NCBI GenBank assembly: GCA_964354025.1
Contig: CAYGXQ010000002.1
Location: forward strand, 51,798-112,364
DNA length: 60,567 bases
Origin: an uncultured Gammaproteobacteria bacterium
GTDB taxonomy: Bacteria > Patescibacteriota > Microgenomatia > 2-02-FULL-39-11
Reading direction: 5' to 3'
The notes beneath the pieces were generated by a model. It was not told where the DNA came from. It saw only the letters and a list, made by a program, of their open reading frames with translations, and did not search any database. The translations under genes and the position numbers were made by a program. Positions 34,205 to 51,234 of this stretch are shown piece by piece; the stretch's first letter is position 1, and each line of letters opens with the position of its first letter.

Positions 34205-34230
34205 GCTTTTCTCCCCGGGCTCAGGGTGGA
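34205..34230 (-). repeat. rplA 3'-end remnant G
   Basis: GCTTTTCTCCCCGGGCTCAGGGTGGA vs the rplA-copy end ACTTTTATCCCCGGACTCATGGTGGA (38384-38409). Confidence 0.6.
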
Positions 34231-34304
34231 TATTGGTATGACATTTTAGTATTAAAATGCATATTGACACTTTGCAATTTAGTAGTAAAATGAAAGGTAG
34301 AAAT

Positions 34305-35456
34305 ATGCTTAAACGTGCGATTGAGGCTAAAATAGAGGAGTATTTACGGGGGAAAGATTATAAAACCTTCTATATTTGGGGTCCGCGGCGTTCCGGGAAA
34401 ACAACGCTCCTGCAAAAACTCTCCCAGAAACTGAAGGTGCCGATTTTTAATTTTGATTTTTCTTCGGATCACGAGAAGTTTAAACCGGACAGAGAAACAC
34501 TGGAAAAACTGGTTAGCCAAAACCGGGTAATTCTCATCGATGAAGTGCAAAACTATCCGCAGGCGACAGTCGCCCTGAAACTATTGCACGATGAGTTTAA
34601 AACCAAAGTGATCGCCACTGGAAGCAGTGAACTTAAACAAAAAGGCAAAGAGTTTGATACTCAGGTGGGCCGGTTCACAGAGCACTATTGTTTACCACTG
34701 TCCATTTCGGAAATTAAAGCAAACAGTACTTACAAAGCGTACGATGAAAAAGCTTTTGAGAAGAAGCTGCTTGAAAATCTTCAGATTTTTGGCTCATACC
34801 CGGAAGTTTACGCGCCGGGGACTATCACGGATGAGGCAAAGATCAAATTACTTGAAAATATTGTCAATGCTTATGTCTTAAAAGACGTGATTGACATCTA
34901 TGAACTTAAAAATGAGAAACTGGCCCGGGACATCCTCACCAAAATTGCCCTCCAGTTAGGCAGCGAAGTCTCCATCCGGGAAATTGCCGCCAGCTTAGGT
35001 TCAAATGGCGTCACGGTGGCAAACTACATTGAAATTTTTATTAAAAACTATATTCTAATTCCTCTGCCGTCCTTCAAAACCAACACCAGAAAAGCCGTCT
35101 CGGAAAACCGGAAACTCTATTTTTATGATTTAGGCGTCCGTAACGCCCTGGTCAAAGATTTCAGGGAAACCAGGCTGCGGCCGGATCAGGGCGGACTATT
35201 TGAAAATTTCATTATTCTGGAAATTGAGAAACAGCGGAAAAATACCGAGGTGAAACGCAATCTCTATTTCTACCGGGAATACGGCGGAAAAGAGATTGAC
35301 TTGGTGATTGAGGACTATTTCAAAAAGTACAATTGTGTTGAGATTAAAATGCAAAAGCACGGAGGCAATAAGGATATTTTTCCTTTGCCCCATACCTATA
35401 CTAAAATCGACGGCGATAATTATTTTGCAAAAACCTCACGAGTGTTGGATCATTAA
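34305..35456 (+). CDS. AAA ATPase, DUF4143-containing family
   Basis: Walker A GPRRSGKTTLL, Walker B VILIDEVQ. C-terminal part is typical of the AAA_14/DUF4143 architecture. Paralog at 49062..50285. Confidence 0.8.
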   Translation: MLKRAIEAKIEEYLRGKDYKTFYIWGPRRSGKTTLLQKLSQKLKVPIFNFDFSSDHEKFKPDRETLEKLVSQNRVILIDEVQNYPQATVALKLLHDEFKTKVIATGSSELKQKGKEFDTQVGRFTEHYCLPLSISEIKANSTYKAYDEKAFEKKLLENLQIFGSYPEVYAPGTITDEAKIKLLENIVNAYVLKDVIDIYELKNEKLARDILTKIALQLGSEVSIREIAASLGSNGVTVANYIEIFIKNYILIPLPSFKTNTRKAVSENRKLYFYDLGVRNALVKDFRETRLRPDQGGLFENFIILEIEKQRKNTEVKRNLYFYREYGGKEIDLVIEDYFKKYNCVEIKMQKHGGNKDIFPLPHTYTKIDGDNYFAKTSRVLDH

Positions 35457-35550
35457 ACTTGTACTTATCCCCGGACTCATGAATTAATCCTTAAATTACC
35501 CCATAATTTATTTCTCTCAACCGTAAAAAGCCTGTTAGATAATATATAAT
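35457..35550. repeat. rplA 3'-end remnant E plus a ~70-nt block shared with 41857-41925
   Basis: ACTTGTACTTATCCCCGGACTCATG, then GAATTAATCCTTAAATTACCCCATAATTTATTTCTCTCAACCGTAAAAAGCCTGTTAGATAATATATAAT. The block is nearly identical in both copies. Confidence 0.75.
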
Positions 35551-35621
35551 CCCAAAGTTGCTCTTTATTAGCCATTAACCTATAATACACCGTTAGCCCA
35601 AAAGTAGAGCGAGGGTAAAAT

Positions 35622-37427
35622 ATGAATGCTGAAATTGATTACCGCAGATTTCATGCTCCAGCTGCCCGTAATGAGCAAATTACTTATGGGCAGTCACTCT
35701 TGGTTGAGGCTGTAGGGATCAATAATAATGATCAACCAGCCTTAGAAGCTTTTAAAGGTAAATTAGGTTTACCGGAAGGAGTGACATTTCAGAGTGTAAC
35801 TGATTATTTAAATCATTTTGTAGCAGAATCTGATTTGCCGACATTTGCCATAGCAACGACTTTGGCCACTTTATCAAAAGATGTTAGCGGTTTTATTCCT
35901 GATTCCCAGGAAGAGCTTCGGTTATATAAACCCATTCCTTCTTTAGATATGCCAATAAAATTTAGATTCGGACAGACATTGTCTTGGAAAGATATATTGC
36001 TACGGATTAGTATCCAAGCGTATACCTATCATGAGATTCTTAATTATTTTGGTAACATACACCCAGATAATTTATCAGAATTTGTTACATATTTAAAAGC
36101 TGAAAAGAAATCTAATTACGGTAGAGATCTGAATAAGATGGTAGAACTAGGATTTTTATCTTGTACTGATTTGACAATTACTGCGTGTCAGTCTGCTGAT
36201 AACCAAACCATCTTTAATATGCATGTTCCAGGAAAAGATGTTCTAGAATATAATTTGACCCGTTTGTTAGATCCTATAAAGGAAGCACATCCTAACTCTG
36301 ATCGTTCTGCCTATTTACTATGCGGATTATTTAATCCAACATTAATAGAATTGATACGTTTAGAAGGAGTTAATCACTCATTTTTTAAAGCCTTTGGAAA
36401 AGCCAATGCCACGGCTTTATTAGATATACTGAGATCGCAGGATTTTGAAGCCATCGACCGATTAGCCAGTCATTGGAAGAAATTATTTGATACTTGGGAA
36501 CAAACTTCGGCAATTTCCATGAACCTACCAGTCCTGACTCATTACGGTCCGGTTAAGGATTGGTGTTTGGGAAAGGCTCCCCAAGGTGTTACTTCTGATG
36601 GCAGACTGACTCCGGAATTTATCAGATGGATATTTTATGAAGCGACTGATGAGCAAAGAGAGGAGTATTCCCAAGTCATGGTTACGCAAATTGAAGCCGG
36701 GATGACCATGACCGGAGTAGATCGGATCGAATGGGATTTCTGGAAAGAAGTATTTGGCAGAATGGAAGCGGAAAATTTGCATGCCATAAATGTAGTTGAT
36801 GAAGGCGGTAGTGCCGGATTAGTCACCCAGCAATTATTTACTGATAGACGGACAGGAGCTTTACATCTTAAAGGTAGATTGGCACATGTAGTTAATGTTG
36901 ACCGGATACCTTCAGAACAAGCGATGTTAAACCGTATTTATAGATTTAATCCTGCTCGTTATGATGAAACTTTAGAGTTGTTGTCACAGGATGACGCAAC
37001 AGAGCTTTATAATCAATCGTTAGCAGCGTTCAGAGAACTACACGGAAATATTTATAGTTTTGTAGGATCAGTCGATACTTCAAAAGCTGATTTATCGGCT
37101 GTTCTCAAACAGCAAAACATTAATCAAGCTCATCTTATCTTAAACATGCGGGCTCAGGGACTGCATGGTAGACCTGAAGAATTGGAAGCAGTTTATCAGC
37201 GCTCATTGCCGCTTCTGGCAGAAGGCGGCCGGTTTTATCTCCAGCGGGGATTACCGATTTACGGTCATCTGGTTTTGGGAGTTTTGTATAAAAAAATAAA
37301 AGGTCAGCCGGTAGTTGAAGCAATTCAGTTAAACAATCACGGAGAATCAGTTACAGTCTGGAGATTGGATAGAAACGGTAATGAATCTACAAGCTGGAAA
37401 GACGAAATAAGGGCAATTTACGGGTAA
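35622..37427 (+). CDS. Hypothetical 601-aa protein with a C-terminal SAM-methyltransferase-like region
   Basis: VVDEGGSAG (motif I-like) ... LLAEGGRFYLQ (post-motif-like) in the last ~230 aa. N-terminal 370 aa unassigned. Confidence 0.45.
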   Translation: MNAEIDYRRFHAPAARNEQITYGQSLLVEAVGINNNDQPALEAFKGKLGLPEGVTFQSVTDYLNHFVAESDLPTFAIATTLATLSKDVSGFIPDSQEELRLYKPIPSLDMPIKFRFGQTLSWKDILLRISIQAYTYHEILNYFGNIHPDNLSEFVTYLKAEKKSNYGRDLNKMVELGFLSCTDLTITACQSADNQTIFNMHVPGKDVLEYNLTRLLDPIKEAHPNSDRSAYLLCGLFNPTLIELIRLEGVNHSFFKAFGKANATALLDILRSQDFEAIDRLASHWKKLFDTWEQTSAISMNLPVLTHYGPVKDWCLGKAPQGVTSDGRLTPEFIRWIFYEATDEQREEYSQVMVTQIEAGMTMTGVDRIEWDFWKEVFGRMEAENLHAINVVDEGGSAGLVTQQLFTDRRTGALHLKGRLAHVVNVDRIPSEQAMLNRIYRFNPARYDETLELLSQDDATELYNQSLAAFRELHGNIYSFVGSVDTSKADLSAVLKQQNINQAHLILNMRAQGLHGRPEELEAVYQRSLPLLAEGGRFYLQRGLPIYGHLVLGVLYKKIKGQPVVEAIQLNNHGESVTVWRLDRNGNESTSWKDEIRAIYG

Positions 37428-37440
37428 ATTATTAAAAGTT

Positions 37441-37467
37441 GACTTTTATCCCCGGGCTCATGGTGGA
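37441..37467 (-). repeat. rplA 3'-end remnant D
   Basis: GACTTTTATCCCCGGGCTCATGGTGGA. Confidence 0.7.
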
Positions 37468-37480: not shown

Positions 37481-38137
37481 TTATTTCGTGATTTTCCGGC
37501 CGATTTCCAAAGAGAGGTTCCGGAAAAAAGATTGCAAAACGGTGAGTTTCAAAGGCTTGATCATTTTGGGTAAAAAAGTAAAATCCTCGGCTTTCAAAAA
37601 GTCCGAGGCAATCAGGAATTGGTCTGTTTCCAGGTGAAATTTAGCTTCAAGTCCATATATTAAATCCCAGATGGTATATTTTTTTAGGAGATAGTAAAGA
37701 TCGACGAAGTCTTTAACATCAGTCCTTTGATTGATAGTTAATAATTTATTAGTCGCGATGTCTCTTAAACTATCCACTGATAAAGGCCCGTCCATTTTTC
37801 CTTTGTGGATCTGTTTATATGGGTAATAGCCGAAATCAATTTTCAGTTCTTTTTTATCAGGAAACTCAAGAAAGAACATATAAACTACTTCGCTGAATTT
37901 AGAAGAAAATTTATAACCGTATTTTTGGGACCATTTATCTACTTTTGAATAAATAACTTCATTATCAAACTTGTTTAAACTGAAAAAATCCAGATCTTCG
38001 GAATAGCGGTGTTTCAAGTGGTACAGGCTTAATGCTGTCCCGCCGGTGAAATAAAAGTTGGAACAAAGAAAAGGGTCATTTTTCAATTCATCCAGTATGA
38101 TTTTTTGATTTCTGGTGATGATTGGTATTTTCCCCAT
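37481..38137 (-). CDS. AbiEii/DUF1814-like nucleotidyltransferase
   Basis: FYFTGGTALSLYHLKHRYSEDLDFF motif. Confidence 0.7.
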   Translation of the reverse strand: MGKIPIITRNQKIILDELKNDPFLCSNFYFTGGTALSLYHLKHRYSEDLDFFSLNKFDNEVIYSKVDKWSQKYGYKFSSKFSEVVYMFFLEFPDKKELKIDFGYYPYKQIHKGKMDGPLSVDSLRDIATNKLLTINQRTDVKDFVDLYYLLKKYTIWDLIYGLEAKFHLETDQFLIASDFLKAEDFTFLPKMIKPLKLTVLQSFFRNLSLEIGRKITK

Positions 38138-38325
38138 ATCAAAAGCTCCAATAAACGCTTTGGTAATCTATATATATGCAATTGATCCCAATTGTATTTA
38201 ATAAAGTGAAGATCCAGTTTTGTCTTACCGGGTCCGTAATTTATCAGTCTCTCCAGCATAAAAAGCCGGCCTTTTTTAGTTTTTCTTAACTCCTTTTCAT
38301 CATAGTCCCAAAGGTGTTTCATCAT
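38083..38325 (-). CDS. Small partner protein of the AbiEii-like gene (80 aa)
   Basis: Overlaps the downstream gene by 55 nt in another frame. The same arrangement is conserved in the second copy (48678..48917). Confidence 0.4.
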   Translation of the reverse strand: MMKHLWDYDEKELRKTKKGRLFMLERLINYGPGKTKLDLHFIKYNWDQLHIYRLPKRLLELLIWGKYQSSPEIKKSYWMN

Positions 38326-38371
38326 ATTAGAATTATATCAGACAGAAGGGGGTATGGGCAACCTGAGTTAA

Positions 38372-38789
38372 TTAATTGAATTTTACTTTTATCCCCGGAC
38401 TCATGGTGGATTTCAGAGTAATATTCTTGATCTTTGTTTCTCCGACGGATTTGGTGAAAGCTTGGAAATTTTCTTCAAGCTGTTTGTCTTTGAAAGACAA
38501 TTTGCCGATGACCTGGTGGATGATGGGAAAATCTGCCTCGGTTTTCCAGGCGATTTCTCCGCCGGTCAGCTTTTCCGCTACTTTTTCCGGAGTAGGTGAG
38601 ATAGTGCCGTTTTTGGGATTGGGCATCAGGCCTTTGGGGCCTAGGAATCGGGCCACTTTGGCCATCACTTGCGGGTGGGCAACGAGGGCGTCAAAATCGA
38701 TTTTGCCTTTTTCCACCGCTTCCACGATTTTATCGATAGTAGCGTTGTCAGCGATGGCTACCCTGATCTTTTTGCCGGTCCCATAGGGG
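38372..38789 (-). pseudogene. rplA: 5'-truncated second copy of rplA (C-terminal ~139 codons)
   Basis: Colinear with 50356-50775 (~85% nt identity by eye). Protein GTGKKIRVAIADNATIDKIVEAVEKGKIDFDALVAHPQVMAKVARFLGPKGLMPNPKNG...SPGIKVKFN. Homology stops at ~38790, exactly where the RAYT-unit inverted repeat begins. Confidence 0.85.
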
Positions 38790-39556
38790 ACGGTCCTTTG
38801 ATATCTTGACAGGACAATCTAGAAATGCAATAGTTTAAACAGATATGCCCCGCGGACCCAGAATTGCTTTCGAGAATGCTTTTTATCACGTCTTCAATAG
38901 GGGAATCGCCTACCAAAAGATTTTTATTGACGATAGCGATTACATAAAGTTCCTAAAAAGGCTTGAAGATCTCAATAATGTCAACGGTTACGATCACAGT
39001 ATTTATTCCTATGTCTTGATGCCCAATCACTTTCATCTTCTTATCCAAACGAAGAAGACTCCTCTTGCCAAAGTCATGTCTTCGCTTCTGACCAGTTACT
39101 CCATGTATTTTAACAGGAAATACAAAAGGATCGGTACTCTTTTCCAAAACAGGTTTAAAAGCAAACTTTGCGATAAAGACAGCTATTTCCTGGGTGCCTC
39201 AAGATATATTCATCTTAATCCTGTTGAAGCAGGTTTAGCAGAAAAGGTTGACGATTATCTTTGGAGCAGTTTTGGGGAGATATTTGGTCATTCTCAATAT
39301 TCAATCATCGATAAAAATGAGATTACCAGATTGGTAGGGGAAACAAACAAAGAGAGGGAATCCTATCGGCAATTTATCCTCTCTGGGATAAAGATAATGG
39401 AAGATATTAAAAATAGCTATTCTTTTGATAAAGATATTGAAGGCAAGCCCAGATTTCAGACTCTCACCCAAAAGAAATATTTGAGAAGAAAAAGACGCAG
39501 AAAGTAAACTATTTAAAATCTAGAAGATCACAACAAGCAATCAAAGGACCGTCCCC
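38786..39556 (+). mobile_element. RAYT/IS200-like unit bounded by a perfect 16-bp inverted repeat
   Basis: GGGGACGGTCCTTTGA (38786-38801) and TCAAAGGACCGTCCCC (39541-39556) flank the Y1 transposase gene. Confidence 0.75.
38845..39507 (+). CDS. Y1 (HUH) transposase, IS200/REP-associated tyrosine transposase-like
   Basis: YHVFNRG, YVLMPNHFHLLI (HUH), GTLFQNRFKS, RYIHLNPVEAGL (catalytic Tyr region), YLWSSF. Confidence 0.8.
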   Translation: MPRGPRIAFENAFYHVFNRGIAYQKIFIDDSDYIKFLKRLEDLNNVNGYDHSIYSYVLMPNHFHLLIQTKKTPLAKVMSSLLTSYSMYFNRKYKRIGTLFQNRFKSKLCDKDSYFLGASRYIHLNPVEAGLAEKVDDYLWSSFGEIFGHSQYSIIDKNEITRLVGETNKERESYRQFILSGIKIMEDIKNSYSFDKDIEGKPRFQTLTQKKYLRRKRRRK

Positions 39557-39578
39557 TAACGGTTCCCTAACGTCGTCT

Positions 39579-39633
39579 ATTACCCTGTCAAATTTTTAGA
39601 TTTGCTTTTCTTGTTGCATAAGCCTATAATATC
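39579..39633 (+). promoter_or_regulatory. Conserved 55-nt promoter block (copy 1)
   Basis: 54/55 identical to 45404-45458. TTGCTT (39602-39607), 17-nt spacer, TATAAT (39625-39630). Confidence 0.65.
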
Positions 39634-39710
39634 CTGTCGCCCAATATATGGGCTTATATTTTATGGGGAAAAAAGAATATAACATCGATTTATGGTGAAA
39701 GGATGATTTT

Positions 39711-41738
39711 ATGATAAGAGATGAACGACAATCAATATCACTTCCGTTTTTTGAAAGACATCCGGAGTATTCGCATCTGGTGGAGCAGGTGAATATAGAT
39801 AGAATAAGAGACAGAATAGACATCTTGTCCGGTATCGCTCATGGGGGTAAGATCGGTGAAGGCGGAGGCAGAGGCCAATTTACACAAGAGGATTTCCGGG
39901 CCAGGGAGACGATGGAAGACTGGGTATGGCAGATGGCCGGCGGGCAGGCAGTTTCAGACAGAGTGGAGACTTACCCTCAGGCGGGAAGATTAAGAAGAAG
40001 TGAAAGTCTCGGATTATCCGTCTGGCAAAATCCTTCAGGCTTAGTGGTATATTTTGAAGGGGAGGATCCGGAAAAAGATGAGCCTTCCGTCGCCGGTTCC
40101 CACACTGATACGATTTATAATGACGCGGGGACGGAAGACGGACAGGAAGGCTGTGCGGCCGCTTTCGAGACTTTAGAAATACTGGTTAATAATTTTCGAG
40201 AGACGGGTAAAAAACCAAAAAGAGGATTTGCGGTGTTGATCGTCACCGGAGAAGACACTCCGCCATACTTTTCCGGCAGCCAGGCTTTGGTTCGAGGACT
40301 TAACAAAGAAGTTCTTGATACCGTTTTAACTCAAGACATCACCTTAAGAGAGGGAATATTAAATTGGGCCAGACATTTCGGAATAAAAGATCTAAAGGAA
40401 GAGAATGTCGATCGGGTTATGTCCCAGCCGCTTCTTGACCAGTCTCCTTATTCCTGGAGTTGGATGTATAGCCATCTTGAACTTCATCCTTTTCCCAATA
40501 ATTCATCAAGAGAGCTTCCGGATATGCTCATGTCAGCGGAAAAAGTACTTGGTTCAACGAAATTAAAATTGACTTTAGAAAAAATTCCATCAATAAAACA
40601 GGTTGATTCAGAGACAATTACCAGTAATGCGCTGATATCTTTTGGCATTAGGGTTACAGGTACCGAAGGACACGCCGCTTCCTTACCTATGGAAGAGAGG
40701 GTGGATGCAGTAAGACTAGTATTGGCCTGGCGGCAAAAAATCCGGGAAATATTGTCACAGGAAAAATATAGAGGGATCACTCTTTATCCATTTGAATTTT
40801 CTATCCCTAATGGTGTGCCAAACAGGGTAGCCGGGTTATCAGAAATGTATTTCACATTGGCATATCCCGTACAGGATAGAAGTAAACAAAGAGAAGTTAG
40901 TAAACTCCTTATGCAGGCAAGAAGAGAAATCGAAGATGAGATCAAACAAGCAAAAACTAAAGAATTGGGAGAAGAAAAAAGCGCAGCAGACTTTTTGGAT
41001 ATAAGTGTTCCAGCTATAGCATTCTCACCGCATTATAAACCCGAAGATCTTGATTATCTTCTTGATCTTGCGGAAAAATATATCTATCTGATTGATTATA
41101 CGTGCAGAGAAAGTACAGCTCATCACAGTAATATGTATCAGACTGCAACTGTCGGAACTATAGGTTTGAGAAACGGGAAAATAGAATTTACTTTGGATTT
41201 AAGATCAGAAGGTAAAACAGCTTTGAAAGTTCTTATATATGATTTAATTAAAACATTTTTCTACCCTCCGTTAAATGTTGCAAAACAAATGATTGTACCT
41301 CTTTTTAAGAGAGATGCTTTAATTATGGGGAGTTATATAAAGCGATTAAAATTAGATCCTGTTGTACGAGATTTAACATTTGATAGAGTCATGTATTTAG
41401 AAAAGGATAAATCAACTAAGAATCCTTTTCCTTATATACTCTCTATAGATGGACCTTTAAGCGGAAGTGAACCTCCGGTAACGATGGACCCGGGACTGAT
41501 TGAGGAGCTGGACGAATTGGGCAAGAGGTTTGCCGGAGTACCGGTTCCGAAAAAATTAATTTTTGCCGGAGAAGATCACCAGGTTCTTGTGGAAAGAGTG
41601 GTAAATGGAAGGATTGGGATGATTTTTCCGGCTTCAAATAATACCCATAAAAAAGATGAACAGACTCCAGTTGAAGCTTTAGAAAAGGCCGCCAAAGTCC
41701 TCGTGGCGCAAAAGATCTCAGAGGTATACGAAGATTAA
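39711..41738 (+). CDS. Oversized (675 aa) M20/carbamoylase-family amidohydrolase-like protein, paralog 1
   Basis: Colinear with the allantoate-amidohydrolase/N-carbamoyl-amino-acid-hydrolase N-terminus: GKIGEGGGRGQFTQEDFRARE, VAGSHTDT, GTEDGQEGCAAAFE, VLIVTGEDTPPYFSGSQAL. The usual EE is replaced by ED. About 260 extra residues. Confidence 0.5.
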   Translation: MIRDERQSISLPFFERHPEYSHLVEQVNIDRIRDRIDILSGIAHGGKIGEGGGRGQFTQEDFRARETMEDWVWQMAGGQAVSDRVETYPQAGRLRRSESLGLSVWQNPSGLVVYFEGEDPEKDEPSVAGSHTDTIYNDAGTEDGQEGCAAAFETLEILVNNFRETGKKPKRGFAVLIVTGEDTPPYFSGSQALVRGLNKEVLDTVLTQDITLREGILNWARHFGIKDLKEENVDRVMSQPLLDQSPYSWSWMYSHLELHPFPNNSSRELPDMLMSAEKVLGSTKLKLTLEKIPSIKQVDSETITSNALISFGIRVTGTEGHAASLPMEERVDAVRLVLAWRQKIREILSQEKYRGITLYPFEFSIPNGVPNRVAGLSEMYFTLAYPVQDRSKQREVSKLLMQARREIEDEIKQAKTKELGEEKSAADFLDISVPAIAFSPHYKPEDLDYLLDLAEKYIYLIDYTCRESTAHHSNMYQTATVGTIGLRNGKIEFTLDLRSEGKTALKVLIYDLIKTFFYPPLNVAKQMIVPLFKRDALIMGSYIKRLKLDPVVRDLTFDRVMYLEKDKSTKNPFPYILSIDGPLSGSEPPVTMDPGLIEELDELGKRFAGVPVPKKLIFAGEDHQVLVERVVNGRIGMIFPASNNTHKKDEQTPVEALEKAAKVLVAQKISEVYED

Positions 41739-41769
41739 ATATTGGACTAGAGATTATAGGGACGGATTA

Positions 41770-41925
41770 TAGGGACGGGGGCAGCGCAAGTTGATAGCAT
41801 CATCTAAAAGACCTTATTTTTCTTGGGAGAATTTTACCTTTCTCCCCGGGCTCTGGGATTAATCCAAAAATTACCCCATAATTTAATTCTCTCAACCGTA
41901 AAAAGCCTGTTAGATAATATATAAT
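41770..41925. repeat. Conserved downstream flank + rplA remnant F + shared 70-nt block
   Basis: 41770-41853 is ~87% identical (73/84 by hand) to 47511-47594 and ends in the remnant GAATTTTACCTTTCTCCCCGGGCTC. 41857-41925 matches 35481-35550. Confidence 0.8.
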
Positions 41926-43558: not shown

Positions 43559-43560
43559 AT

Positions 43561-44361
43561 TTAAAGCTCCAGTATTTTTGACTTTTCCGCCCAGGGGAAT
43601 AATTTCCCATAGGCAAATTTCAATAAACTGTCGATGGTCAGGGCCACCGCCGCGCTGATGACTACCAGGCTGAATATTTCGGTGATATGGACATAACGCT
43701 GGGCCAGTACCAGCCGGTAGCCGATGCCGGAATTGGCGCCTAAGACTTCCGCCAATACGACCGTTGACCAGCTGCTGCCCAGTTCTATCCGGCAGATATC
43801 CCAGATTTGGGGGAAAATCCGGGGGAAAACGATTTTTGTCAGGATCTGTTTTTGGTTTGCTCCCAATACTTTGCCCATCTCGATGTATTCTTTTTCCACA
43901 TTGGCCGCGGCACTGCTGATATACAGTACCAGATAAGGAAGGGCCCGGATGAAAATAAGGGCGATTTTCCCGAATTCTCCCACCCCGAACCACAAGATAA
44001 GCAAAGGGATCATGGCGGCGGCTGGGATAAATCTTAAAAAATTAAAGTAGGGTTCAAAGATATTCTGTATCGGTTTATGGATTCCGCACATTATCCCAAC
44101 CGGGATTCCGACTATGGCGGCCGCAGCAAAACCGGTAGCGACCCGAAAAAGGCTGATGGCGACGTCTTTCAATATTTCTTTATTCCAAATAAGCTGCCAT
44201 ATATCTGCGGCCACACTGGCCGGTTTGGGCAGGGTCAAATCACCGATACCGAATATAGTTTTCAGTATTATCCAGAGAAAGATAAAGATGGCGATAGAGA
44301 AGGGGATCAGCAAAAAGGAGGGATAGGGCGATTTTCTGTTTTTGGTGAAAAATGCGGGCAT
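43561..44361 (-). CDS. ABC transporter permease (NitT/TauT family)
   Basis: Six hydrophobic segments and an SsuC/TauC-like EAA region (MGKVLGANQKQILTKIVFPRIFPQIW). Confidence 0.85.
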   Translation of the reverse strand: MPAFFTKNRKSPYPSFLLIPFSIAIFIFLWIILKTIFGIGDLTLPKPASVAADIWQLIWNKEILKDVAISLFRVATGFAAAAIVGIPVGIMCGIHKPIQNIFEPYFNFLRFIPAAAMIPLLILWFGVGEFGKIALIFIRALPYLVLYISSAAANVEKEYIEMGKVLGANQKQILTKIVFPRIFPQIWDICRIELGSSWSTVVLAEVLGANSGIGYRLVLAQRYVHITEIFSLVVISAAVALTIDSLLKFAYGKLFPWAEKSKILEL

Positions 44362-44370
44362 GGAATCAGT

Positions 44371-45366
44371 TTATCTCAACTTTCCCAAAGTTGACAAATC
44401 GATTATCTCAGAGGCGGTCATCTGCTTGGAGATGATCTTTTCCGCCTGCGCCACGTCAATGATTGACTGGGTGACTTCAAAAACCATTCCTTTTTTATCC
44501 TCCGTGCCGAAATACGCGAGGTTATCCTTTTTGTCAAGCCAGCGGACGGATTCGATGGCTTTGCCAAACTCTACGGCGGTCATGCCGTATTCTTTGGCCA
44601 TGATTTCATTAGCCTCTGTGGGATTGTTTTTCCAGTATTCGAGGCTGTCAAACCAGGCCTTTGCCAGTCCGATAAAAGCGGTCTGTTTATTTTTTACCGC
44701 GTCATTTCTGGCCAGAACAATATCAGTCACCACGTTGGGCGTCTCTTTGCTGGAGATAAGGATATGGCCTTTCCCCTGGGCGACGACATTGCTGATCCAC
44801 GGCTCCATCATCGCTCCGGCGTCTATTTTGCCGGCCAGCATGGCCGGGCCGATCGTCTCATCCGGCATATCCAGAATTTTGATATCTTTATCCTGCAATC
44901 CGTTTTTATTCATCAGGTATTTAAGGAAAAAATAATTGGTAAAGCCTTTGGTGGCGGCCACGGTTTTGCCTTTCAGGTCGGCAAAAGTCTTGATGCTGTT
45001 TTTAGCCACAATGGCGTCGCCGCCGAAAGAAGTATCATAGGCCATGATAATCTTCAGATCCATGCCGGCGTTGATATTAAATACGGCTCCGTCTATCGTT
45101 GGGGTGAGGAAATCTACCTGTCCGGAAGCCAACATCCCTCTTCTGGCGTCGGAACTGCCCACCTTTTCAATTTTTAATTCCAGTCCGTATTTTTTGTCAA
45201 GATTTTTATTTTTAGCCAGATAAAAAGGGGCAAAACCAACCCATTTACCCGAATCAGCGGTAGTGATTTGTGTCAGCTGCGGCGCAGTCTTGTTTTTGGA
45301 ATAAACGGTAAAGAATAAGGAGAAAGCGGCAATGGCCAATATAATTACCAGAATTTTTTTGATCAT
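44371..45366 (-). CDS. ABC transporter substrate-binding protein (SsuA/NMT1-like)
   Basis: Start MIKKILVIILAIAAFSLFF at 45366 (signal peptide). The upstream 51 codons of the ORF run through the conserved promoter block and are rejected. Confidence 0.8.
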   Translation of the reverse strand: MIKKILVIILAIAAFSLFFTVYSKNKTAPQLTQITTADSGKWVGFAPFYLAKNKNLDKKYGLELKIEKVGSSDARRGMLASGQVDFLTPTIDGAVFNINAGMDLKIIMAYDTSFGGDAIVAKNSIKTFADLKGKTVAATKGFTNYFFLKYLMNKNGLQDKDIKILDMPDETIGPAMLAGKIDAGAMMEPWISNVVAQGKGHILISSKETPNVVTDIVLARNDAVKNKQTAFIGLAKAWFDSLEYWKNNPTEANEIMAKEYGMTAVEFGKAIESVRWLDKKDNLAYFGTEDKKGMVFEVTQSIIDVAQAEKIISKQMTASEIIDLSTLGKLR

Positions 45367-45403
45367 ATTTTTATTTATCTTACTATAACAATCTCCATTA
45401 TAC

Positions 45404-45458
45404 ATTACCCTGTCAAATTTTGAGATTTGCTTTTCTTGTTGCATAAGCCTATAATATC
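45404..45458 (+). promoter_or_regulatory. Conserved 55-nt promoter block (copy 2)
   Basis: TTGCTT (45427-45432), 17-nt spacer, TATAAT (45450-45455). The ATG at 45467 is 11 nt downstream, with no SD. Confidence 0.65.
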
Positions 45459-45466
45459 TAGCTATT

Positions 45467-47491
45467 ATGATTGAACGAGATAGGGGAGAAAGAATTCCTG
45501 CTTCATTGGCTGAAATCAAGCCGGGTTTGGCTCTTATTTCCCCTGATTCAATCGAATCTTACAGAAATAGATTGTCCGCCTATTCTTCAGTGGTTACCAG
45601 AGATGGCGACCATCATTATGTTTCTGAAGCCTCCGGTCAACTTATCGGTGAAGGCGGAGGCCGGGCGGCTTTTACCGAACACGGCGATTTCAAAGTGAGA
45701 GAGGAAATTATCACTATCGTCAGGGAAATGCTAACCGGAAAAGCAGGCCAAGAGGGAAGAGAGCTGAAGGAAGAAAGTAGTAAAGATGAAAAAGGAATTT
45801 ATACTATATTCCCTGAATATGGAATTACCATCTGGAATAGTCCGGCCGGTCTGGTTGTCACCTACGCGCCTTCCGGAACCGATGATAAGAAAAAACCCCT
45901 GCGGACTGGTTCGCATCTGGATACACCGGAAGGCAATGCCGGCAGAGAAGACGGCCAGGGAGGTATAGCAGTCACTTTAGAGATGCTTCGCTGTATGATT
46001 GAATCAAAGTATATTCCCGAAAGTCCCATCCAATTGGTCTTCGACACCGCTGAAGAATCAGGGAAGCGGGCTTTCTTAGGCGCCGCCATGTTTGCCCAAG
46101 GCATAGAAGATATTGAACTGGATATCCGGCTTGAAATAGGATTATCTGTAAGGGAGGCAATAGAAAGATGGAGAAAATATTTCCACGCTGACCATTTTGA
46201 TATAAGTTGTCTGTCTGCGCCGCTGTTGCCGCAAGGCCGTTGCTACATCGAGCCCCATGCTTTCCCGGGTAAATTAGATGAAAAAATTATTTTAGCCGCT
46301 CCGGAATCAATCCCCGCTGCCAGAAGGTTTGAAATTATAGTAGAACCTATTGAAAAAGCCGCCAAACAAGCAGTAGAAGTTATGACAAGTAAATATACTC
46401 AGGCTCTGACAATAAAGACCACTGGTACACCGGGTCATCATGCAAGTTTTAAACCAGATGAAAAACTAAGCGCACTGGATAGGCTCGCCAGATTTTTTCC
46501 AAACCTTAAACAAGCCATAACTGAGGTAGAAGGAATTGAGGTTTATATTGTCGAAATGGGTATAAACGGTAAACAGGCGATGAATGTTGTACCCGGAGAG
46601 GCGGAAATGACGTTAGTCGTGGCCGGTGACACGAAAGAAACGGTAACAAATGTAATACAGACTATCGAAGCCGCAAAAGAAGAACATAATGAGCGTCATC
46701 TTTGGCCATATCCTTGTAAATATCCAATTGTCATCAGCCATTCTCCCACTCCTCCTACAATAGATAGCTTGTTTTATGATGCCCAAACCACCTTCAGGTC
46801 TTTCGAAATTACCGCAAGAATGATTAATATTATTGAAAGAAATATAAACTTTTTAGGTAGGATAGCAAACGGTAGAGGAAATATAGGGATACTGGAATAC
46901 AATCCCAGTGGTGAAATCAGTTTTAATGTAGATGTGAGAAGTACTGACTTACACTGGTTAAACGATTGTATCTCCAGTTTCTTAGAAACCATAATACTTG
47001 GTTATCCTAGAGCTGGTAGAAAACCAATAGAAGAAATAGCAGTGGCAGGAACATTAATGACAGAAAAACAACTAAAAAAAATATTTCTAGCTTCGGAAAG
47101 GAGCGTCTATGATGCCATTCTTTATCATCATGTTGATAGTATAAATAATTCAGAACAAGCACTAGGTCATAGGTATATGGATTTTCCTCTACCCACACAC
47201 GTTATTAATTTTAACGGTCCGCTTCCCGGCAGCGTGGATCCTTTATTTCCATCAAAAGATTTACATAGAGTTATTCAGGATGTAGCTCGTGATCTTTATA
47301 AACAGTATGTGCGAAAATTCCCGATCACGGCCGGTGAATCCGGACAGGTTTTTCAGCATATTTCCGATATGGTAAATATGATCTTTGTCCAACAGCAGGG
47401 CGTGACTCACCAACCATCTGAGTATGTGGAACCGGAGCATTGGGCTATGGCCGCAGCCACTCTCTGGGGGACGCTTCATCAGGTTAGATAA
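45467..47491 (+). CDS. Oversized (674 aa) M20/carbamoylase-family amidohydrolase-like protein, paralog 2
   Basis: LIGEGGGRAAFTEHGDFKVRE, RTGSHLDTPEGNAGREDGQGGIAV, VFDTAEESGKRAFLGAAM (EE retained). Colinear with paralog 1, but only motif-level identity. Confidence 0.5.
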   Translation: MIERDRGERIPASLAEIKPGLALISPDSIESYRNRLSAYSSVVTRDGDHHYVSEASGQLIGEGGGRAAFTEHGDFKVREEIITIVREMLTGKAGQEGRELKEESSKDEKGIYTIFPEYGITIWNSPAGLVVTYAPSGTDDKKKPLRTGSHLDTPEGNAGREDGQGGIAVTLEMLRCMIESKYIPESPIQLVFDTAEESGKRAFLGAAMFAQGIEDIELDIRLEIGLSVREAIERWRKYFHADHFDISCLSAPLLPQGRCYIEPHAFPGKLDEKIILAAPESIPAARRFEIIVEPIEKAAKQAVEVMTSKYTQALTIKTTGTPGHHASFKPDEKLSALDRLARFFPNLKQAITEVEGIEVYIVEMGINGKQAMNVVPGEAEMTLVVAGDTKETVTNVIQTIEAAKEEHNERHLWPYPCKYPIVISHSPTPPTIDSLFYDAQTTFRSFEITARMINIIERNINFLGRIANGRGNIGILEYNPSGEISFNVDVRSTDLHWLNDCISSFLETIILGYPRAGRKPIEEIAVAGTLMTEKQLKKIFLASERSVYDAILYHHVDSINNSEQALGHRYMDFPLPTHVINFNGPLPGSVDPLFPSKDLHRVIQDVARDLYKQYVRKFPITAGESGQVFQHISDMVNMIFVQQQGVTHQPSEYVEPEHWAMAAATLWGTLHQVR

Positions 47492-47510
47492 TTGAAGAAT
47501 TATCCGCTAT

Positions 47511-47602
47511 TAGGGACGGGGGCAGAAGAAGTTGATAGTATCATCTAAAATACCTTATTTTTCTTAGGCGAATTTCACTTTTATTCCCGGGCTCATGGCG
47601 GA
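47511..47602. repeat. Conserved downstream flank + rplA remnant C
   Basis: See 41770-41853. The remnant is GAATTTCACTTTTATTCCCGGGCTCATGGCGGA (47570-47602). Confidence 0.8.
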
Positions 47603-47650
47603 CCCAGCCTCGTCGGCAGGCAGGTTTGAGGGTGATACTTCGCGGCAAAC

Positions 47651-48046
47651 TCAAGGAGAAGCGGGGAAAGGATAGAATTTTAGAGATTTGATTTGTCGGA
47701 AATGTTTTAGATTTCGGGTCGCCAGTTTGGCTTTCAGATAAATTGCAGTTTGGGCGATGATATAATCGGCCAAGGGTAAATTCACTTTTTGTCCGTTTTT
47801 GGCGATCCCCGTAAATCGGGCCAGTTCTTTGTCAAAAGGGATAACGGGAAAATTATTCACCAGCTCCGAGAGCAGTTTGTTTGTTTCGACGTCCATTCTT
47901 CCGGCAAAAAGTTCCACGACAGTGACGGAGGAGAGGTATAGTTGGATTTTCCCTGCTAATTGGAGATTTAGAAGTTCTTCATACCAGCTTTTTCCGGTTC
48001 TGAGATAATCGATAATGATATCGCTGTCTAGGATGACTTTTTCCAT
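47651..48046 (-). CDS. vapC: PIN-domain toxin (VapC-like)
   Basis: LDSDIIIDYL, VVELF, ADYIIAQTA, TRNLKHF: acidic residues in PIN order. Confidence 0.8.
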   Translation of the reverse strand: MEKVILDSDIIIDYLRTGKSWYEELLNLQLAGKIQLYLSSVTVVELFAGRMDVETNKLLSELVNNFPVIPFDKELARFTGIAKNGQKVNLPLADYIIAQTAIYLKAKLATRNLKHFRQIKSLKFYPFPASP

Positions 48047-48054
48047 AAAAGAAT

Positions 48055-48339
48055 TTATGCGCCTAACTGACGCATGTAACGGATTTCTTTTTTGCCGCGG
48101 AAGAAATTATTATTATAATCAATCTTTATTTTTCCGATCAGTTTCCGGGAGATAGACAACAGTTTTTTTGCTTGTTCTCTGGCTGTTTGTTCAACCGGAA
48201 TCACTTTCAATATCGTTTTGCCGTCTTTTTCTATCAGTACTTCGCCACCGTCTTCAACCAGGCGGTCGGTTAAGCTGAAAATATTTTTCCTGAAATCAGT
48301 GATGGGGATGAGTACATTCATATGTACGTCAGTGTACAT
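48055..48339 (-). CDS. Phd/YefM-like antitoxin
   Basis: MNVLIPITDFRKNIFSLTDRLVEDGGEVLIEKDGKTILKVIP (probable start 48321). Lies directly upstream of vapC. Confidence 0.6.
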   Translation of the reverse strand: MYTDVHMNVLIPITDFRKNIFSLTDRLVEDGGEVLIEKDGKTILKVIPVEQTAREQAKKLLSISRKLIGKIKIDYNNNFFRGKKEIRYMRQLGA

Positions 48340-48378
48340 AATATGTTAGGGTTTGTCAAGAGGGAGATCAGCTGACTT

Positions 48379-48732
48379 TTACTTCGTGATTTTTCGGCCG
48401 ATTTCCAAAGATAGGTTCCGGAAAAAAGATTGAAGAGTGGTAAGTTCCAAAGGTTTGATCATTTTAGGCAGAAAGTCGAAATCATCGACTTTCAAAAAGT
48501 CAGAGGCGATCAGGAATTGGTCAGTTTTTAGATGAAATTTAGCTTCAAGTCCATATATTAAATCCCAGATTGTATATTTTTTTAAGAGATAATAAAGATC
48601 GACGAAGTCTTTAATATCAGTCCTTTGATTGATAGTCAATAATTTATTGGTCGCGATGTCCCTAAAAGGGTCATTTTTCAATTCATCCAGTATGATTTTT
48701 TGATTTCTGGTGATGATTGGTATTTTCCCCAT
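48379..48732 (-). pseudogene. AbiEii-like gene copy with an in-frame ~101-codon deletion
   Basis: Near-identical to 37481..38137 but jumps from ...LKNDPF to RDIATNKLL..., removing the GG...DLDF nucleotidyltransferase core. Confidence 0.75.
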
Positions 48733-48917
48733 ATCAAAAGCTCCAATAAACGCTTTGGTAATCTATATATATGCAGTTGATCCCAATTGTTTTTTATAGA
48801 GTGAAGATCCAGTTTTGTCTTACCGGGTCCGTAATTTATCAATCTCTCCAGCATAAAGAGCCGGCCTTTTTTGGTTTTTCTTAACTCCTTTTCATCATAG
48901 TCCCAAAGGTGTTTCAT
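48678..48917 (-). CDS. Second copy of the small AbiEii-partner protein
   Basis: 77 of 79 aligned residues identical to 38083..38325. Confidence 0.4.
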   Translation of the reverse strand: MKHLWDYDEKELRKTKKGRLFMLERLINYGPGKTKLDLHSIKNNWDQLHIYRLPKRLLELLIWGKYQSSPEIKKSYWMN

Positions 48918-48968
48918 CGTATTGGAATTATATCAGACAGAAGGGGGAAAGGGCAACTTTAGAGATAA

Positions 48969-49007
48969 TCAATTGAATTTAACCTTTATCCCCGGGCTCA
49001 TGGTGGA
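48969..49007 (-). repeat. rplA 3'-end remnant B
   Basis: TCAATTGAATTTAACCTTTATCCCCGGGCTCATGGTGGA vs 38372-38410 TTAATTGAATTTTACTTTTATCCCCGGACTCATGGTGGA. Followed by a small hairpin TGCCTGAC-AACA-GTCAGGCA. Confidence 0.85.
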
Positions 49008-49061
49008 CATGCCTCGACTGCCTGACAACAGTCAGGCAAGGCGGGTTTCAGAGTTACATTT

Positions 49062-50285
49062 TTAAAAAACGGTCATGGTCAGAAAATCGATGATATTGAT
49101 CTGTTTAATACCCTTATAATCACCCTGTGTCATTTCATCCATGGAAACAACCATTTTAGGATAGTTATCAGGAACATCCAGGAGGTTGCCGAACTCTCTT
49201 TGTTTGACTTTGGGCGAAGTGATCAGATAAGCCACTTGGACATAGATCCTTTTACCGCTTTTCTCGCCGACAAAATCGATGTCTTTTTTATCCAACTGAC
49301 CGATGGATACTTTATAACCCAGATAAGTCAGGTGGCCGAAAACCAGATTTTCCAAAATTTTATTAATGTCCGCCTGCCGGTAACCGATGTAAGTATGCCT
49401 AAGACCTAAATCCTGCCAATAATATTTTTCGTTCACTTCAAAGATTTTCTTGCCGATCACTTCCATCCGGGGTACTTTATGGACAATGAAACTGGAACTC
49501 AGGTTTGAGAGGTAGTTTAAAACAGTATTGGGAGAAAGGGCTATATGCTGGGATTTCAGAAAATCGCTGATTTTTTTGGCCGAAACCAGACTCCCTGTAT
49601 TATCCGCCAGATACTCAACCAGCCTTAAAAGAAAATTGACATTTCTGATGGTATATCTTTCCACCACATCCTTCAATATGATGGTATTGGCGACGCTCTG
49701 TAGATAACCGTAGACAATTTCATCGGTCAGGTCAAGATGGATCAGGTAGGGAAGCCCTCCGTATTTGATATATTTCAGGAGCGAATCGCTGTTTTTTTCC
49801 AGACGGTGGAAATGCAGAAATTCCGGGAATGAAAGCGGATAGACCGGAATTTCCAAAAATCTGCCTGACAAAAGAGTCGCCAGCTCTCCGGAGAGGAGAT
49901 TGGCATTACTGCCGGTACAGTAGATGTCGTATTTTTTGGAAGCAGCCAGATCTCTCAGGGCTTTTTCGAAAAACTGGATATCCTGGATTTCGTCGATAAA
50001 AAGGTAATTTTTCCCCGCTTTTGAGGTTTTGGATTTAATGTATTTGAGTAAGTCATGATATGTACGGATCTGGTCAAACTTATACAATTCTTTATTGATA
50101 TAGATAAAGGCGGCTTTGGGATGGCTTTTTTTGATCTCATCCATAATCTGGAAAAGAAGATAACTTTTACCCGCTCTCCGTTGGCCGGTCAGCACCTTGA
50201 TAATTTCTTTATCTATAAAGGGCTTCACCTTGTCTAGGTATTTCCCTCTTTTGATATATCTTTTAACCATACTTAAAATATACAC
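49062..50285 (-). CDS. AAA ATPase, DUF4143-containing family (paralog 2)
   Basis: Walker A GQRRAGKSYLL, Walker B YLFIDEIQ. Probable start MVKRYIKRG at 50270. Confidence 0.8.
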   Translation of the reverse strand: MYILSMVKRYIKRGKYLDKVKPFIDKEIIKVLTGQRRAGKSYLLFQIMDEIKKSHPKAAFIYINKELYKFDQIRTYHDLLKYIKSKTSKAGKNYLFIDEIQDIQFFEKALRDLAASKKYDIYCTGSNANLLSGELATLLSGRFLEIPVYPLSFPEFLHFHRLEKNSDSLLKYIKYGGLPYLIHLDLTDEIVYGYLQSVANTIILKDVVERYTIRNVNFLLRLVEYLADNTGSLVSAKKISDFLKSQHIALSPNTVLNYLSNLSSSFIVHKVPRMEVIGKKIFEVNEKYYWQDLGLRHTYIGYRQADINKILENLVFGHLTYLGYKVSIGQLDKKDIDFVGEKSGKRIYVQVAYLITSPKVKQREFGNLLDVPDNYPKMVVSMDEMTQGDYKGIKQINIIDFLTMTVF

Positions 50286-50355
50286 GGAATATATATAATA
50301 TTTTAATTATACTTAAAATAGATAATTTGTCAAGGATAGAGGAAATTAGTGGTTA

Positions 50356-51234
50356 TTAATTGAATTTAATTTTGATGCCGGGACTCATCGTTGATTTTAA
50401 AGTAATATTCTTGATCTTCGTCTCTCCGACGGATTTGGTGAAGGCTTTGAAATTTTCCTCAAGCTGTTTGTCTTTAAAAGAGAGTTTACCGATTACCTGG
50501 TGGATGATGGGGAAGTCCGCCTCGGTTTTCCAGGCGATTTCTCCGCCGGCCAGCTTGGCCGCCACTTTTTCCGGAGTGGGTGAAATGGTTCCATTTTTCG
50601 GATTAGGCATGAGACCCTTGGGGCCTAAAAAGCGGGCCACTTTGGCCAGCTTGGCCATCACCTGCGGATGAGCCACCAGGGCGTCAAAGTCGATTTTCCC
50701 TTTTTCGACGGCTTCCACGATTTTATCTATGGTAGTGTTGTCGGCGATGGCGACCCTGATCTTTTTGCCGGTGCCGTGGGGCAGTTGGACATTGCCGCGC
50801 AGACCTTTTTCCGCTACGTTAATATGGAGTTCTACCGTACCGTCAAATTTAGTCAGGGAAATCTGTCGAAGAAGGGCAAGGGCTTCATCAATCGGATAAA
50901 CTTTTTTGTGCTCGATCTTCATCACCGCCGCTTTATAATTGCCTGATCGTACCCGTATTTTGGCTTTTCTTTTGGGTTTTTCCGCTTCAATCTTTATTCC
51001 TTCAGCCTGGTCTTTTTCCACCTGTTCGGTCAGTTTGGCCAGCCGATTAAGTTCCTCTTCACTTTCCGCCCCGACACTCTTTATCCTTTCGCCGCCTTTC
51101 ATGCCGGCGATGTGGATTTTTTCCGGCTTTGCCGCGTGTTCCCTTTTTTTCTTTTCCTCACGGCGAACCTTCTGCTTTTCACGCAGTGCTTCTTCGTTTT
51201 CTCCGCCTAAAGTAGCAACTTTTATTTTTCCCAT
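50356..51234 (-). CDS. rplA: Ribosomal protein L1 with a ~95-aa Lys/Glu-rich N-terminal extension
   Basis: YPIDEALALLRQISLTKFDGTVELHINV...LPHGTGKKIRVAI...ARFLGPKGLMPNPKNGT. 292 aa. Confidence 0.93.
   Translation of the reverse strand: MGKIKVATLGGENEEALREKQKVRREEKKKREHAAKPEKIHIAGMKGGERIKSVGAESEEELNRLAKLTEQVEKDQAEGIKIEAEKPKRKAKIRVRSGNYKAAVMKIEHKKVYPIDEALALLRQISLTKFDGTVELHINVAEKGLRGNVQLPHGTGKKIRVAIADNTTIDKIVEAVEKGKIDFDALVAHPQVMAKLAKVARFLGPKGLMPNPKNGTISPTPEKVAAKLAGGEIAWKTEADFPIIHQVIGKLSFKDKQLEENFKAFTKSVGETKIKNITLKSTMSPGIKIKFN

Follow-up and report, generated by a model that had tools for sequence, protein, structure and literature searches.

The stretch of DNA analysed here (the window; 60,567 nucleotides of contig CAYGXQ010000002.1, assembly GCA_964354025.1) contains a ribosomal protein gene cluster that is split by a large island of accessory genes. 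The gene for ribosomal protein L1, rplA (50356-51234, minus strand; identified by Pfam Ribosomal_L1 and its translation), encodes 292 amino acids (aa) with a Lys/Glu-rich N-terminal extension, and its reading frame is intact, ending in ..STMSPGIKIKFN*. Its normal downstream partners, rplJ (26937-27491) and rplL (26528-26911), lie on the same minus strand. The normally short spacer between rplA and rplJ is 22.9 kb long here (27492-50355), and because rplJ sits at 26937-27491 the island is larger than first described. It holds seven cassettes bounded by eight copies of the rplA 3' end, namely the live end and seven dead remnants that correspond to about the last 13 rplA codons. These copies are genuine rplA ends.

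Results

The copies are numbered c1 (the live end) to c8 outward from rplA, and negative positions count nucleotides (nt) before the rplA stop codon. c1 (50356-50394) comprises the last 39 nt of rplA. c2 (48969-49007) and c3 (47564-47602) were found by motif and profile searches, as was c4 (41823-41857), which is truncated at its 5' end. c5 (38372-38788) preserves, in frame, 417 nt from the 3' part of a diverged rplA allele, and c6 (37432-37467) has its 5' boundary exactly at -39. c7 (35457-35483), also 5'-truncated, abuts the stop codon of the second ATPase gene of the island, and c8 (34195-34230; STLSPGRKAGI*), which has decayed more than any other copy, overlaps the promoter of a gene for a 754-aa protein at its -35 box. 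All eight lie between rplA and rplJ on the minus strand, which is the rplA strand, and the intact copies, read in the rplA direction, translate to STMSPGIKVKFN* or closely similar peptides.

The 23-nt consensus TTTATCCCCGGGCTCATGGTGGA (plus strand) matched the window five times at up to 3 mismatches and not once in 100 dinucleotide shuffles. Relaxed motif searches of the window recovered all eight sites and no others, and an nhmmer profile built from the remnants returned eight significant copies (E = 2e-12 to 7e-4), the ninth match having E = 3.1. The original prediction of eight same-strand copies that resemble rplA more than shuffled sequence does is thus borne out by three kinds of search; its sites stand, with the start of c3 refined from 47570 to 47564 and the length of c5 from 418 to 417 nt. 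The live end c1 is recoded at synonymous sites relative to every remnant and has 6 mismatches to the consensus. In 1.04 Mb of related loci, 41 of 41 core hits at up to 4 mismatches fall either on an rplA end or on a same-strand remnant that follows rplA at a distance of 43-2485 nt, and no rplA-end remnant occurs elsewhere or on the opposite strand of this DNA. A generic repetitive extragenic palindromic (REP) element or terminator is thereby ruled out. Remnants of the 3' ends of rplL, rplJ, rplK, nusG, secE and three other genes were looked for and none was found, which rules out gene-end remnants as a general habit of this genome. An Rfam scan matched the tRNA-Trp gene only, and the copies fit no known RNA family.

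Cassette 1 (49062-50333, minus strand) consists of a consensus sigma-70-like promoter (50306-50333) and a gene for an AAA_14/DUF4143 ATPase (Pfam, PADLOC). It is followed by a junction block (48969-49063, minus) made up of 18 nt that resemble rplA positions -57 to -40 (49046-49063), a 38-nt hairpin insert termed X (49008-49045) and c2. Cassette 2 (47651-48962, minus) contains an AbiE module, with a 79-aa antitoxin-like open reading frame (ORF; 48678-48917) and a truncated AbiEii gene (48379-48732), and genes for Phd (48055-48339) and PIN (47651-48046) proteins; the next junction block (47564-47636, minus) is composed of ATCACCCTCAAA, the rplA ..ITLK codons (47625-47636), a 22-nt insert X (47603-47624) and c3. 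Cassette 3 (41969-47563, mixed strands), flanked by a REP-like TAGGGACGG at 47511, differs in GC content (47-49% vs about 41% in the surroundings) and carries M20 amidohydrolase-like gene 2 (45467-47491, plus), genes for an ABC transporter (binding protein 44371-45519, permease 43561-44361, ATPase 42836-43993; all minus) and a gene for an enzyme like arginine deiminase or dimethylarginine dimethylaminohydrolase (DDAH; 41969-42820, plus). c4 is fused to an 86-nt promoter block (together 41823-41925, minus) which is also fused to c7.

Cassette 4 (38784-41822, plus) combines M20 amidohydrolase-like gene 1 (39711-41738) with a gene for a REP-associated tyrosine (Y1) transposase (RAYT; 38845-39507). 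Cassette 5 (37481-38367, minus) holds an intact AbiE pair (80-aa ORF 38083-38325; AbiEii 37481-38137) with its own promoter (38332-38361), cassette 6 (35484-37427, plus) a gene for a 601-aa protein (35622-37427) behind the shared 86-nt promoter block, and cassette 7 (34257-35456, plus) a second AAA_14/DUF4143 ATPase gene of PADLOC family PDC-S01, with a likely true start at 34305. The distal spacer (27492-34194, mixed strands) is free of remnants and encodes the 754-aa protein, a CHAP-domain protein (30911-31705) and proteins of 146, 330 and 549 aa. Each cassette that reads in the same direction as rplA has its own strong predicted sigma-70-like promoter right behind the remnant stop codon.

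Annotation with Pfam and PADLOC agrees with the earlier view that the copies bound unrelated gene sets. Both ATPases match the PADLOC defence-candidate family PDC-S01 (COG1373; E = 8e-149 for the first, 1e-87 for the second), and they are only 26% identical to each other. DUF4143 has been assigned to the PD-(D/E)XK nuclease superfamily (PMC3424549). Homologues of the first ATPase in distant phyla are 62-74% identical, which marks it as a well-travelled gene. The AbiEii protein of cassette 5 (Pfam, E = 6e-19, and a PADLOC match) is preceded by the 80-aa ORF, which matches no family; an AbiEii nucleotidyltransferase toxin thus stands behind a small gene in antitoxin position, as in known AbiE (type IV toxin-antitoxin or abortive infection) systems. 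The gene content of the cassettes is otherwise as first described, apart from the label "methyltransferase-like" for the 601-aa protein, which had no match in Pfam, NCBIfam, PADLOC or PDB sequences. The 754-aa protein had no match in Pfam, NCBIfam or PADLOC. A third AbiEii gene (11087-11917) and a third M20-family gene (18517-20082) lie outside the island, so these cargo families recur in the genome.

Homologues of the L1 protein, which number in the hundreds, place the window in Candidatus Gottesmanbacteria (Microgenomates, candidate phyla radiation (CPR)). Related or independent loci, genomes, contigs and assemblies are labelled L001 to L084; the best L1 matches are the metagenome contig L058 (96% aa identity) and L001 (93%). 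The rplA-rplJ gap of related genomes ranges from 0.13 kb to about 7.8 kb and holds PIN, BrnT, AbiEii, IS1595 transposase, Band_7, MFS and CHAP genes together with many unknown genes. At least seven related genomes or contigs have same-strand rplA-end remnants downstream of rplA, and there, as the original prediction had suggested looking for, the same type of remnant flanks other cargo. L001 has an rplA fragment of about 135 nt behind a 575-aa ORF, and L075 one of about 178 nt. L006 has two remnants and a GIY-YIG gene in its first cassette; in L007 a single remnant follows an AbiEii gene, and L004 and L072/L073/L074 carry remnants as well. L058/L077/L079 show an identical remnant structure, seen in three data sets that are independent of one another. 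Close relatives, at 86-96% identity in L1, bear different arrays. Homologues of the CHAP and 146-aa genes also come after the last remnant in L006 and L007, and these two genes are therefore likely the ancestral neighbours.

The Lys/Glu-rich extension of L1 (about 95 aa, 50950-51234) is common to all Gottesmanbacteria homologues (288-309 aa); a typical bacterial L1 has about 230 aa. Two further spacers of the ribosomal cluster are variable. The gap between rplL and a GalT/HIT-like gene (21455-26527) measures 5 kb here vs about 0.3-1 kb in relatives and encodes a radical SAM/B12 protein and unknown proteins of 449 and 316 aa, a second insertion zone in which no rplL-end remnants were found; the nusG-rplK spacer varies among relatives (BrnT/CopG, dCMP deaminase).

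The remnants have a preferred 5' boundary. The starting point of both c6 and c8 falls precisely between the K and S codons of ..ITLK/STMSPGIK.., that is at -39. In c2 and c3 the rplA-like sequence resumes upstream (for 18 and 12 nt) and is split at -39 by the GC-rich inserts of 38 and 22 nt, an architecture also present in L058/L077, L072, L006 (third copy) and L004. In L005 an insert lies 10 nt past the rplA stop codon with no remnant behind it. The remnant of L075 has 0 mismatches to the live gene in 139 nt up to -40 and about 12 in 36 nt downstream. Altogether, a discontinuity at -39 is found in 7 of about 12 independent remnants, the others starting at -25, -53, -61, about -135, -178 and -418. 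The -25 starts are those of c4 and c7, which have the promoter block in common, and the -418 edge of c5 coincides with an inverted repeat of the RAYT element. The discontinuities thus cluster at -39, a probable recombination hotspot in rplA.

The inserts form a loose family, CTCAAA-CCYG-TCCGCC-N4-GGCGGA/TCCACC, and in five lineages hairpins lie on the 3' side of CT(C/G)AAA at -39. These hairpins have 6-8 bp and weak folding z-scores (-0.6 to -2.4); several junctions have no hairpin at all, and no left-end hairpin of the IS200/IS605 type was found. Inspection of the aligned cores for a 28-bp dif-like site (11-6-11) at the module borders gave TCCACCATGAG/CCCGGG/GATAAAAGTNA, with no symmetry of the arms; weak folding and the absent arm symmetry rule out an attC-like or dif-like structure at the repeats. 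Palindromes of the type TCCGCC-N4-GGCGGA are dispersed in Microgenomates loci (about 25 sites in about 1 Mb, from L001 to L075 and at 31715 in the window).

In genomes with an insert and a remnant, the live ends are recoded to TCAACG ATG AGT CCn GGn, while the remnants keep TCCACC ATG AGC CCG GGG; as a biological signal this synonymous recoding may be regarded as suggestive only. Likewise, the live genes of close relatives show 53-67% identity in the last 39 nt vs 82-88% just upstream, which, for a short stretch of poorly constrained C-terminal codons, could be read as no more than a suggestive sign of mosaicism.

The longest remnant indicates where such ends come from. c5 has an open reading frame and is 84% identical to the live rplA at the DNA level; of 139 aligned codons, 88 are identical, 45 differ synonymously and 6 nonsynonymously, and the differences are distributed over the codon positions as 8/1/47. 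This is the pattern of purifying selection, and c5 was therefore once part of a functional, diverged allele: either a working rplA of another lineage or the former resident end, since replaced by a foreign one. A drifting local duplicate is ruled out by the almost exclusively synonymous divergence. At their C-terminal codons the remnants differ by lineage (the KVKFN type characterises every window copy as well as the window's own gene, and the remnants of other genomes resemble those genomes' own rplA), so the remnants would represent displaced resident or close-relative ends and not the mark of one promiscuous element with a universal site. c8 is probably the oldest copy and the original rplA end. 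It is the most decayed and overlaps the promoter of likely ancestral neighbours, a situation that fits growth of the array from the rplA side.

The array has also been a substrate for recombination itself. Flanking blocks are common to c2 and c5, to c3 and c4, and to c4 and c7, and hence the eight copies do not stand for eight independent events. The low-coordinate (stop-codon) side of c4 matches the flank of c3, its high-coordinate (5') side that of c7, and the switch lies inside the CCCCGGGCTC core. Between the window and L058/L077, an 81-nt block (pre-sequence, insert X and c2) shows 95% identity, with different genes on both sides, and the cassette 1 ATPase gene is absent from L077. The proteins of M20 genes 1 and 2 share 24% aa identity, whereas the flanks of the genes are 87-98% identical (98% in a 55-nt promoter block, 87% in an 84-nt 3' flank that includes the remnant). 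The genes for the 601-aa and the DDAH-like protein have a common 86-nt upstream block fused to a truncated remnant, and identity between the AbiE modules of cassettes 2 and 5 is 89-97%, compared with 84% between the adjoining rplA pieces. Rather than eight clean integrations, the eight copies record several acquisitions and later exchanges between copies. Together with the divergence of c5 and the differing arrays of close relatives, these mosaic identities agree with the original prediction that repeated recombination, and not a single duplication, has been at work. Gene ends have been replaced repeatedly at rplA, diverged functional alleles have been imported, and remnants have recombined with one another.

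Pfam scans were carried out for about 50 window ORFs and for 65 ORFs from 17 related islands (18 islands with that of the window). No tyrosine or serine recombinase (Phage_integrase, Resolvase, Recombinase) was matched among the window ORFs, as had been claimed for the 60 kb, and the Y1/RAYT gene is the sole recombinase-like gene. Neither was an integrase matched in the 65 ORFs of the related islands, and relaxases and excisionases were found in none of the 18. An all-against-all BLASTP comparison of the unknown island proteins yielded no recurrent family adjoining rplA that might be a hidden recombinase. Viral scans for a free element with the site gave no hit except one chance match inside an unrelated ORF, and a metagenome scan returned solely rplA-linked loci and no attP-bearing element.

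The RAYT gene (Pfam Y1_Tnp, E = 5e-10; NCBIfam REP_Tyr_transpos, 65 bits against a cutoff of 80 bits) is enclosed by a pair of 54-nt inverted repeats (38784-38837 and 39505-39558), of which a solo copy is found at 29341-29400. A REP-like motif, TAGGG(G)ACGG / CCGTCCCTA, occurs six times in the island (including 41757, 41770 and 47511) and once in the 1.04 Mb of related loci, and a related CCGTCCCTAA lies just past the live rplA stop codon in L001. The element therefore has the parts of a REPtron, namely a Y1/RAYT gene, inverted REP-like repeats and further solo repeats. In an exact-protein look-up, the L1 and RAYT proteins of the window were not on record. Elements resembling miniature inverted-repeat transposable elements with the motif 'GTCATTGCGA' are present in the window as inverted copies (1371-1427 and 30411-30467, 57 nt, 93% complementary; also 1335-1361 and 12608-12634), in L001, and beside remnant c2 of L006.

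Three features of the window lie apart from the island. A 68-nt palindromic repeat (2706-2773 and 16568-16635, 93% identical) is inserted in frame in a ribulose-phosphate 3-epimerase-like gene and in a transaldolase gene, metabolic ORFs that are unrelated to each other, and gives both the peptide LKDTSKVFRRDSFEVEE; similar in-frame palindromic elements are known from Rickettsia. Three tandem 225-nt repeats (70-72% identical; 14808-15482) are located inside a 1085-aa ORF that matches no Pfam family, in a region of raised GC content (about 50%). A 1680-aa ORF (3509-8551) has a C-terminal peptidyl-tRNA hydrolase domain and no other recognisable one; provided that the ORF is real, such a fusion is unusual.

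Discussion

We tentatively favour, at not quite even confidence, the reading that the rplA-rplJ spacer of Gottesmanbacteria is a gene-capture hotspot with the recombination junction inside the rplA end, served by host recombination and by enzymes acting in trans. DNA from related cells would pair with the conserved rplK-rplA region on one side, and its other side would be joined at -39 or close to it, or else to an rplA end displaced earlier. The incoming DNA would carry its own gene end and push the resident end downstream as a dead remnant; rplA would stay intact because the incoming piece supplies its own copy of that end. Repetition would stack the cassettes with the newest adjoining rplA, and the remnants could then act as short, portable homology for the exchange, duplication and deletion of cassettes. 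As no recombinase is encoded by the cassettes, the enzymes have to be supplied from outside them: candidates are homologous or illegitimate recombination of the host, possibly aided by a trans-acting nuclease or recombinase at -39.

Several points weigh against this reading. The clustering at -39 is sharper than expected of random illegitimate joints and hints at a dedicated enzyme, and none was found. This reading does not readily account for the cargo-less modules of L004, L072 and L077 (new end, stop codon, 3-13 nt, hairpin, old end), which every other model explains poorly as well. The hairpins may belong to a generic REP-like family that has nothing to do with the joining step, and a trans-acting integrase could be encoded outside the 60 kb of the genome that were covered. 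Finally, the viral and metagenome scans returned no donor element, no circular or excised forms were encountered, and the evidence comes from assemblies.

The main rival is classical tandem accretion, in which integrase-bearing elements with an attB site in the rplA 3' end would have entered one after another and since decayed, like cis-mobilizable elements (CIMEs), or cargo-only satellites would have been served by an integrase from elsewhere in the genome. We regard it as unlikely, and as the most serious of the alternatives. Direct repeats of a gene 3' end with the gene restored are its textbook signature, and in the window such repeats do flank the elements, with the proximal copy restoring the rplA frame. 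The common -39 boundary and a conserved core of 23-26 nt resemble an att identity block, and one relative's island encodes a TrwB/TraG-like coupling protein. The 3' ends of rplL, rpmE, rpmG and rpsI are known targets of tyrosine integrases, and tandem accretion is documented for ICEs (integrative and conjugative elements), integrative and mobilizable elements (IMEs) and CIMEs, e.g. ICESt1/3 at fda and the streptococcal IMEs at rplL, rpmE, rpmG and rpsI (PMC5704250). The idea that a ribosomal protein gene would be an unprecedented target does not hold against these precedents; with such gene ends as established targets and arrays without an integrase already known, the find is less unprecedented than first supposed. 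The ICE/IME/CIME arrays also share stacked elements separated by direct repeats of the target 3' end, decayed members that lack an integrase, and toxin-antitoxin cargo (PMC5704250). In contrast, the target here is rplA and the host a CPR bacterium, no element end in the window or the 17 related islands bears an integrase, and the cassettes are single operons of 1-6 kb with promoters of their own. Remnant lengths vary from 25 to 418 nt in the window (53, 61, about 135 and about 178 nt in relatives); those of about 135, 178 and 418 nt are atypical for att sites, and one of them is 100% identical to the live gene up to -40. With these variable lengths, no attP-bearing element in the viral and metagenome scans and recombination within the array, the classical site-specific integration of the original prediction is not established.

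The tycheposon islands of Prochlorococcus offer the same kind of precedent: a streamlined genome, fixed sites, stacked elements of which the older are pushed inward, partial copies of the tRNA target left as scars, and defence or nutrient cargo (10.1101/2020.12.28.424599). Their targets are tRNA genes and they encode tyrosine recombinases, whereas here the target is the end of a protein-coding gene, no recombinase is seen, and the sole tRNA gene of the window (Trp, 57070-57141) lies outside the island.

Rather unlikely is an integron-like capture platform on the last 13 codons of the essential rplA gene, in which a trans-acting enzyme, perhaps a RAYT/HUH protein at the -39 hairpins, would insert and shuffle promoter-bearing defence and scavenging cassettes with substitute gene ends. 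Small ordered cassettes, a repeated recombination site, toxin-antitoxin cassettes and the newest cassette nearest a fixed platform are indeed what integrons show. Unlike in integrons, no IntI and no attC (RYYYAAC/GTTRRRY) are present, the repeat is a coding remnant, and the cassettes have their own promoters and lie in both orientations; IntI, attI and Pc were not found in the window, where the array is preceded by rplK, nusG and secE and no integrase. The logic of the array thus matches tandem accretion and tycheposon islands, and loosely integrons; membership fails on the recombinase and, for integrons, also on attC.

We consider single-stranded cut-and-paste by an HUH/Y1 enzyme improbable. 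A RAYT acting in trans would cut REP-like hairpins and insert segments 3' of ..CT(C/G)AAA together with a substitute gene end. As in REPtrons and IS200/IS605 elements, a Y1 transposase gene lies between inverted REP-like repeats, one of which abuts the c5 edge, with solo motif copies in the island and behind the live rplA end of L001, and five lineages have small hairpins precisely at -39. Action in trans is normal for RAYTs and would explain cassettes that have no recombinase. Nevertheless, no mobilisation of cargo genes is known for RAYT/REP systems, the X hairpins differ in sequence and their palindromes are generic in these genomes, the c8, c4 and c7 junctions have no hairpin, and no Y1 gene was found in the related islands.

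Still less credit is due to an endonuclease that cuts rplA at -39, the left end being repaired from a recoded, cargo-bearing allele and the remnant being end-joined with fold-back hairpin scars. It would account for live ends that are recoded (TCAACG..AGTCCnGGn) where X and a remnant are present while the remnants keep TCCACCATGAGCCCGGGG, for remnants that begin at the putative cut, and for inserts that are partly palindromic with the adjacent TCCACC; genes with nuclease folds do occur in first cassettes (DUF4143 in the window, GIY-YIG in L006). Across genomes, however, no consistent nuclease family adjoins rplA, the consensus is still present in many live ends, and the recoding statistics are weak.

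Purely local segmental duplication with decay, and no import of DNA, is very improbable. Paired modules 5.7-12 kb apart (AbiE, M20 flanks, promoter block) speak for it; yet adjacent parts of these "duplicates" range from 84% to 98% identity, the M20 proteins and the ATPases are as dissimilar as described above, c5 diverged under purifying selection, and relatives carry different cargo. Least credible of all is a chimera that joins the rplA regions of co-occurring strains, as the contig from a metagenome-assembled genome and the likeness of c5 to another strain's live rplA end might suggest: Logan assemblies of ERR3804374 and ERR3804373 match 45429-48562, 48664-50549 and 50520-52780 at 100% identity and independently reproduce the c1, c2 and c3 junctions (c3 in assembly L084), the L058/L077/L079 structure recurs in three independent data sets, repeats of 25-39 nt are shorter than typical assembler k-mers, and the c5/RAYT junction has about 5 nt in common, too little for a false join.

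Capture at the rplA end by host recombination, the reading we favour, finds a parallel in integrase-free hotspots of horizontal gene transfer and in homology-facilitated illegitimate recombination after natural transformation, which likewise combine variable content between core genes, free of mobile-element genes, with a long homologous anchor and a short or illegitimate second joint. To our knowledge, such hotspots are not known to produce displaced gene ends in ordered arrays, or a breakpoint that is preferred among them. No description of an rplA-linked hotspot or of such arrays in CPR bacteria was found in the open-access literature.

Conclusions

CPR bacteria, whose tiny genomes contain few mobile elements that can be recognised, acquire accessory genes in ways that are poorly understood. 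Our analysis reveals a lineage-wide acquisition site inside a ribosomal protein gene cluster. Displaced gene ends make its history readable, one breakpoint is preferred, and phage-defence and toxin-antitoxin genes prevail among the cargo. If no cassette-encoded recombinase is needed, this would be a simple new route to island formation, and the remnant sequence could serve as a search key for recently acquired genes in CPR metagenomes. If the cassettes are decayed integrase-borne elements instead, rplA and the CPR would be added to the target and host range of tandem accretion.

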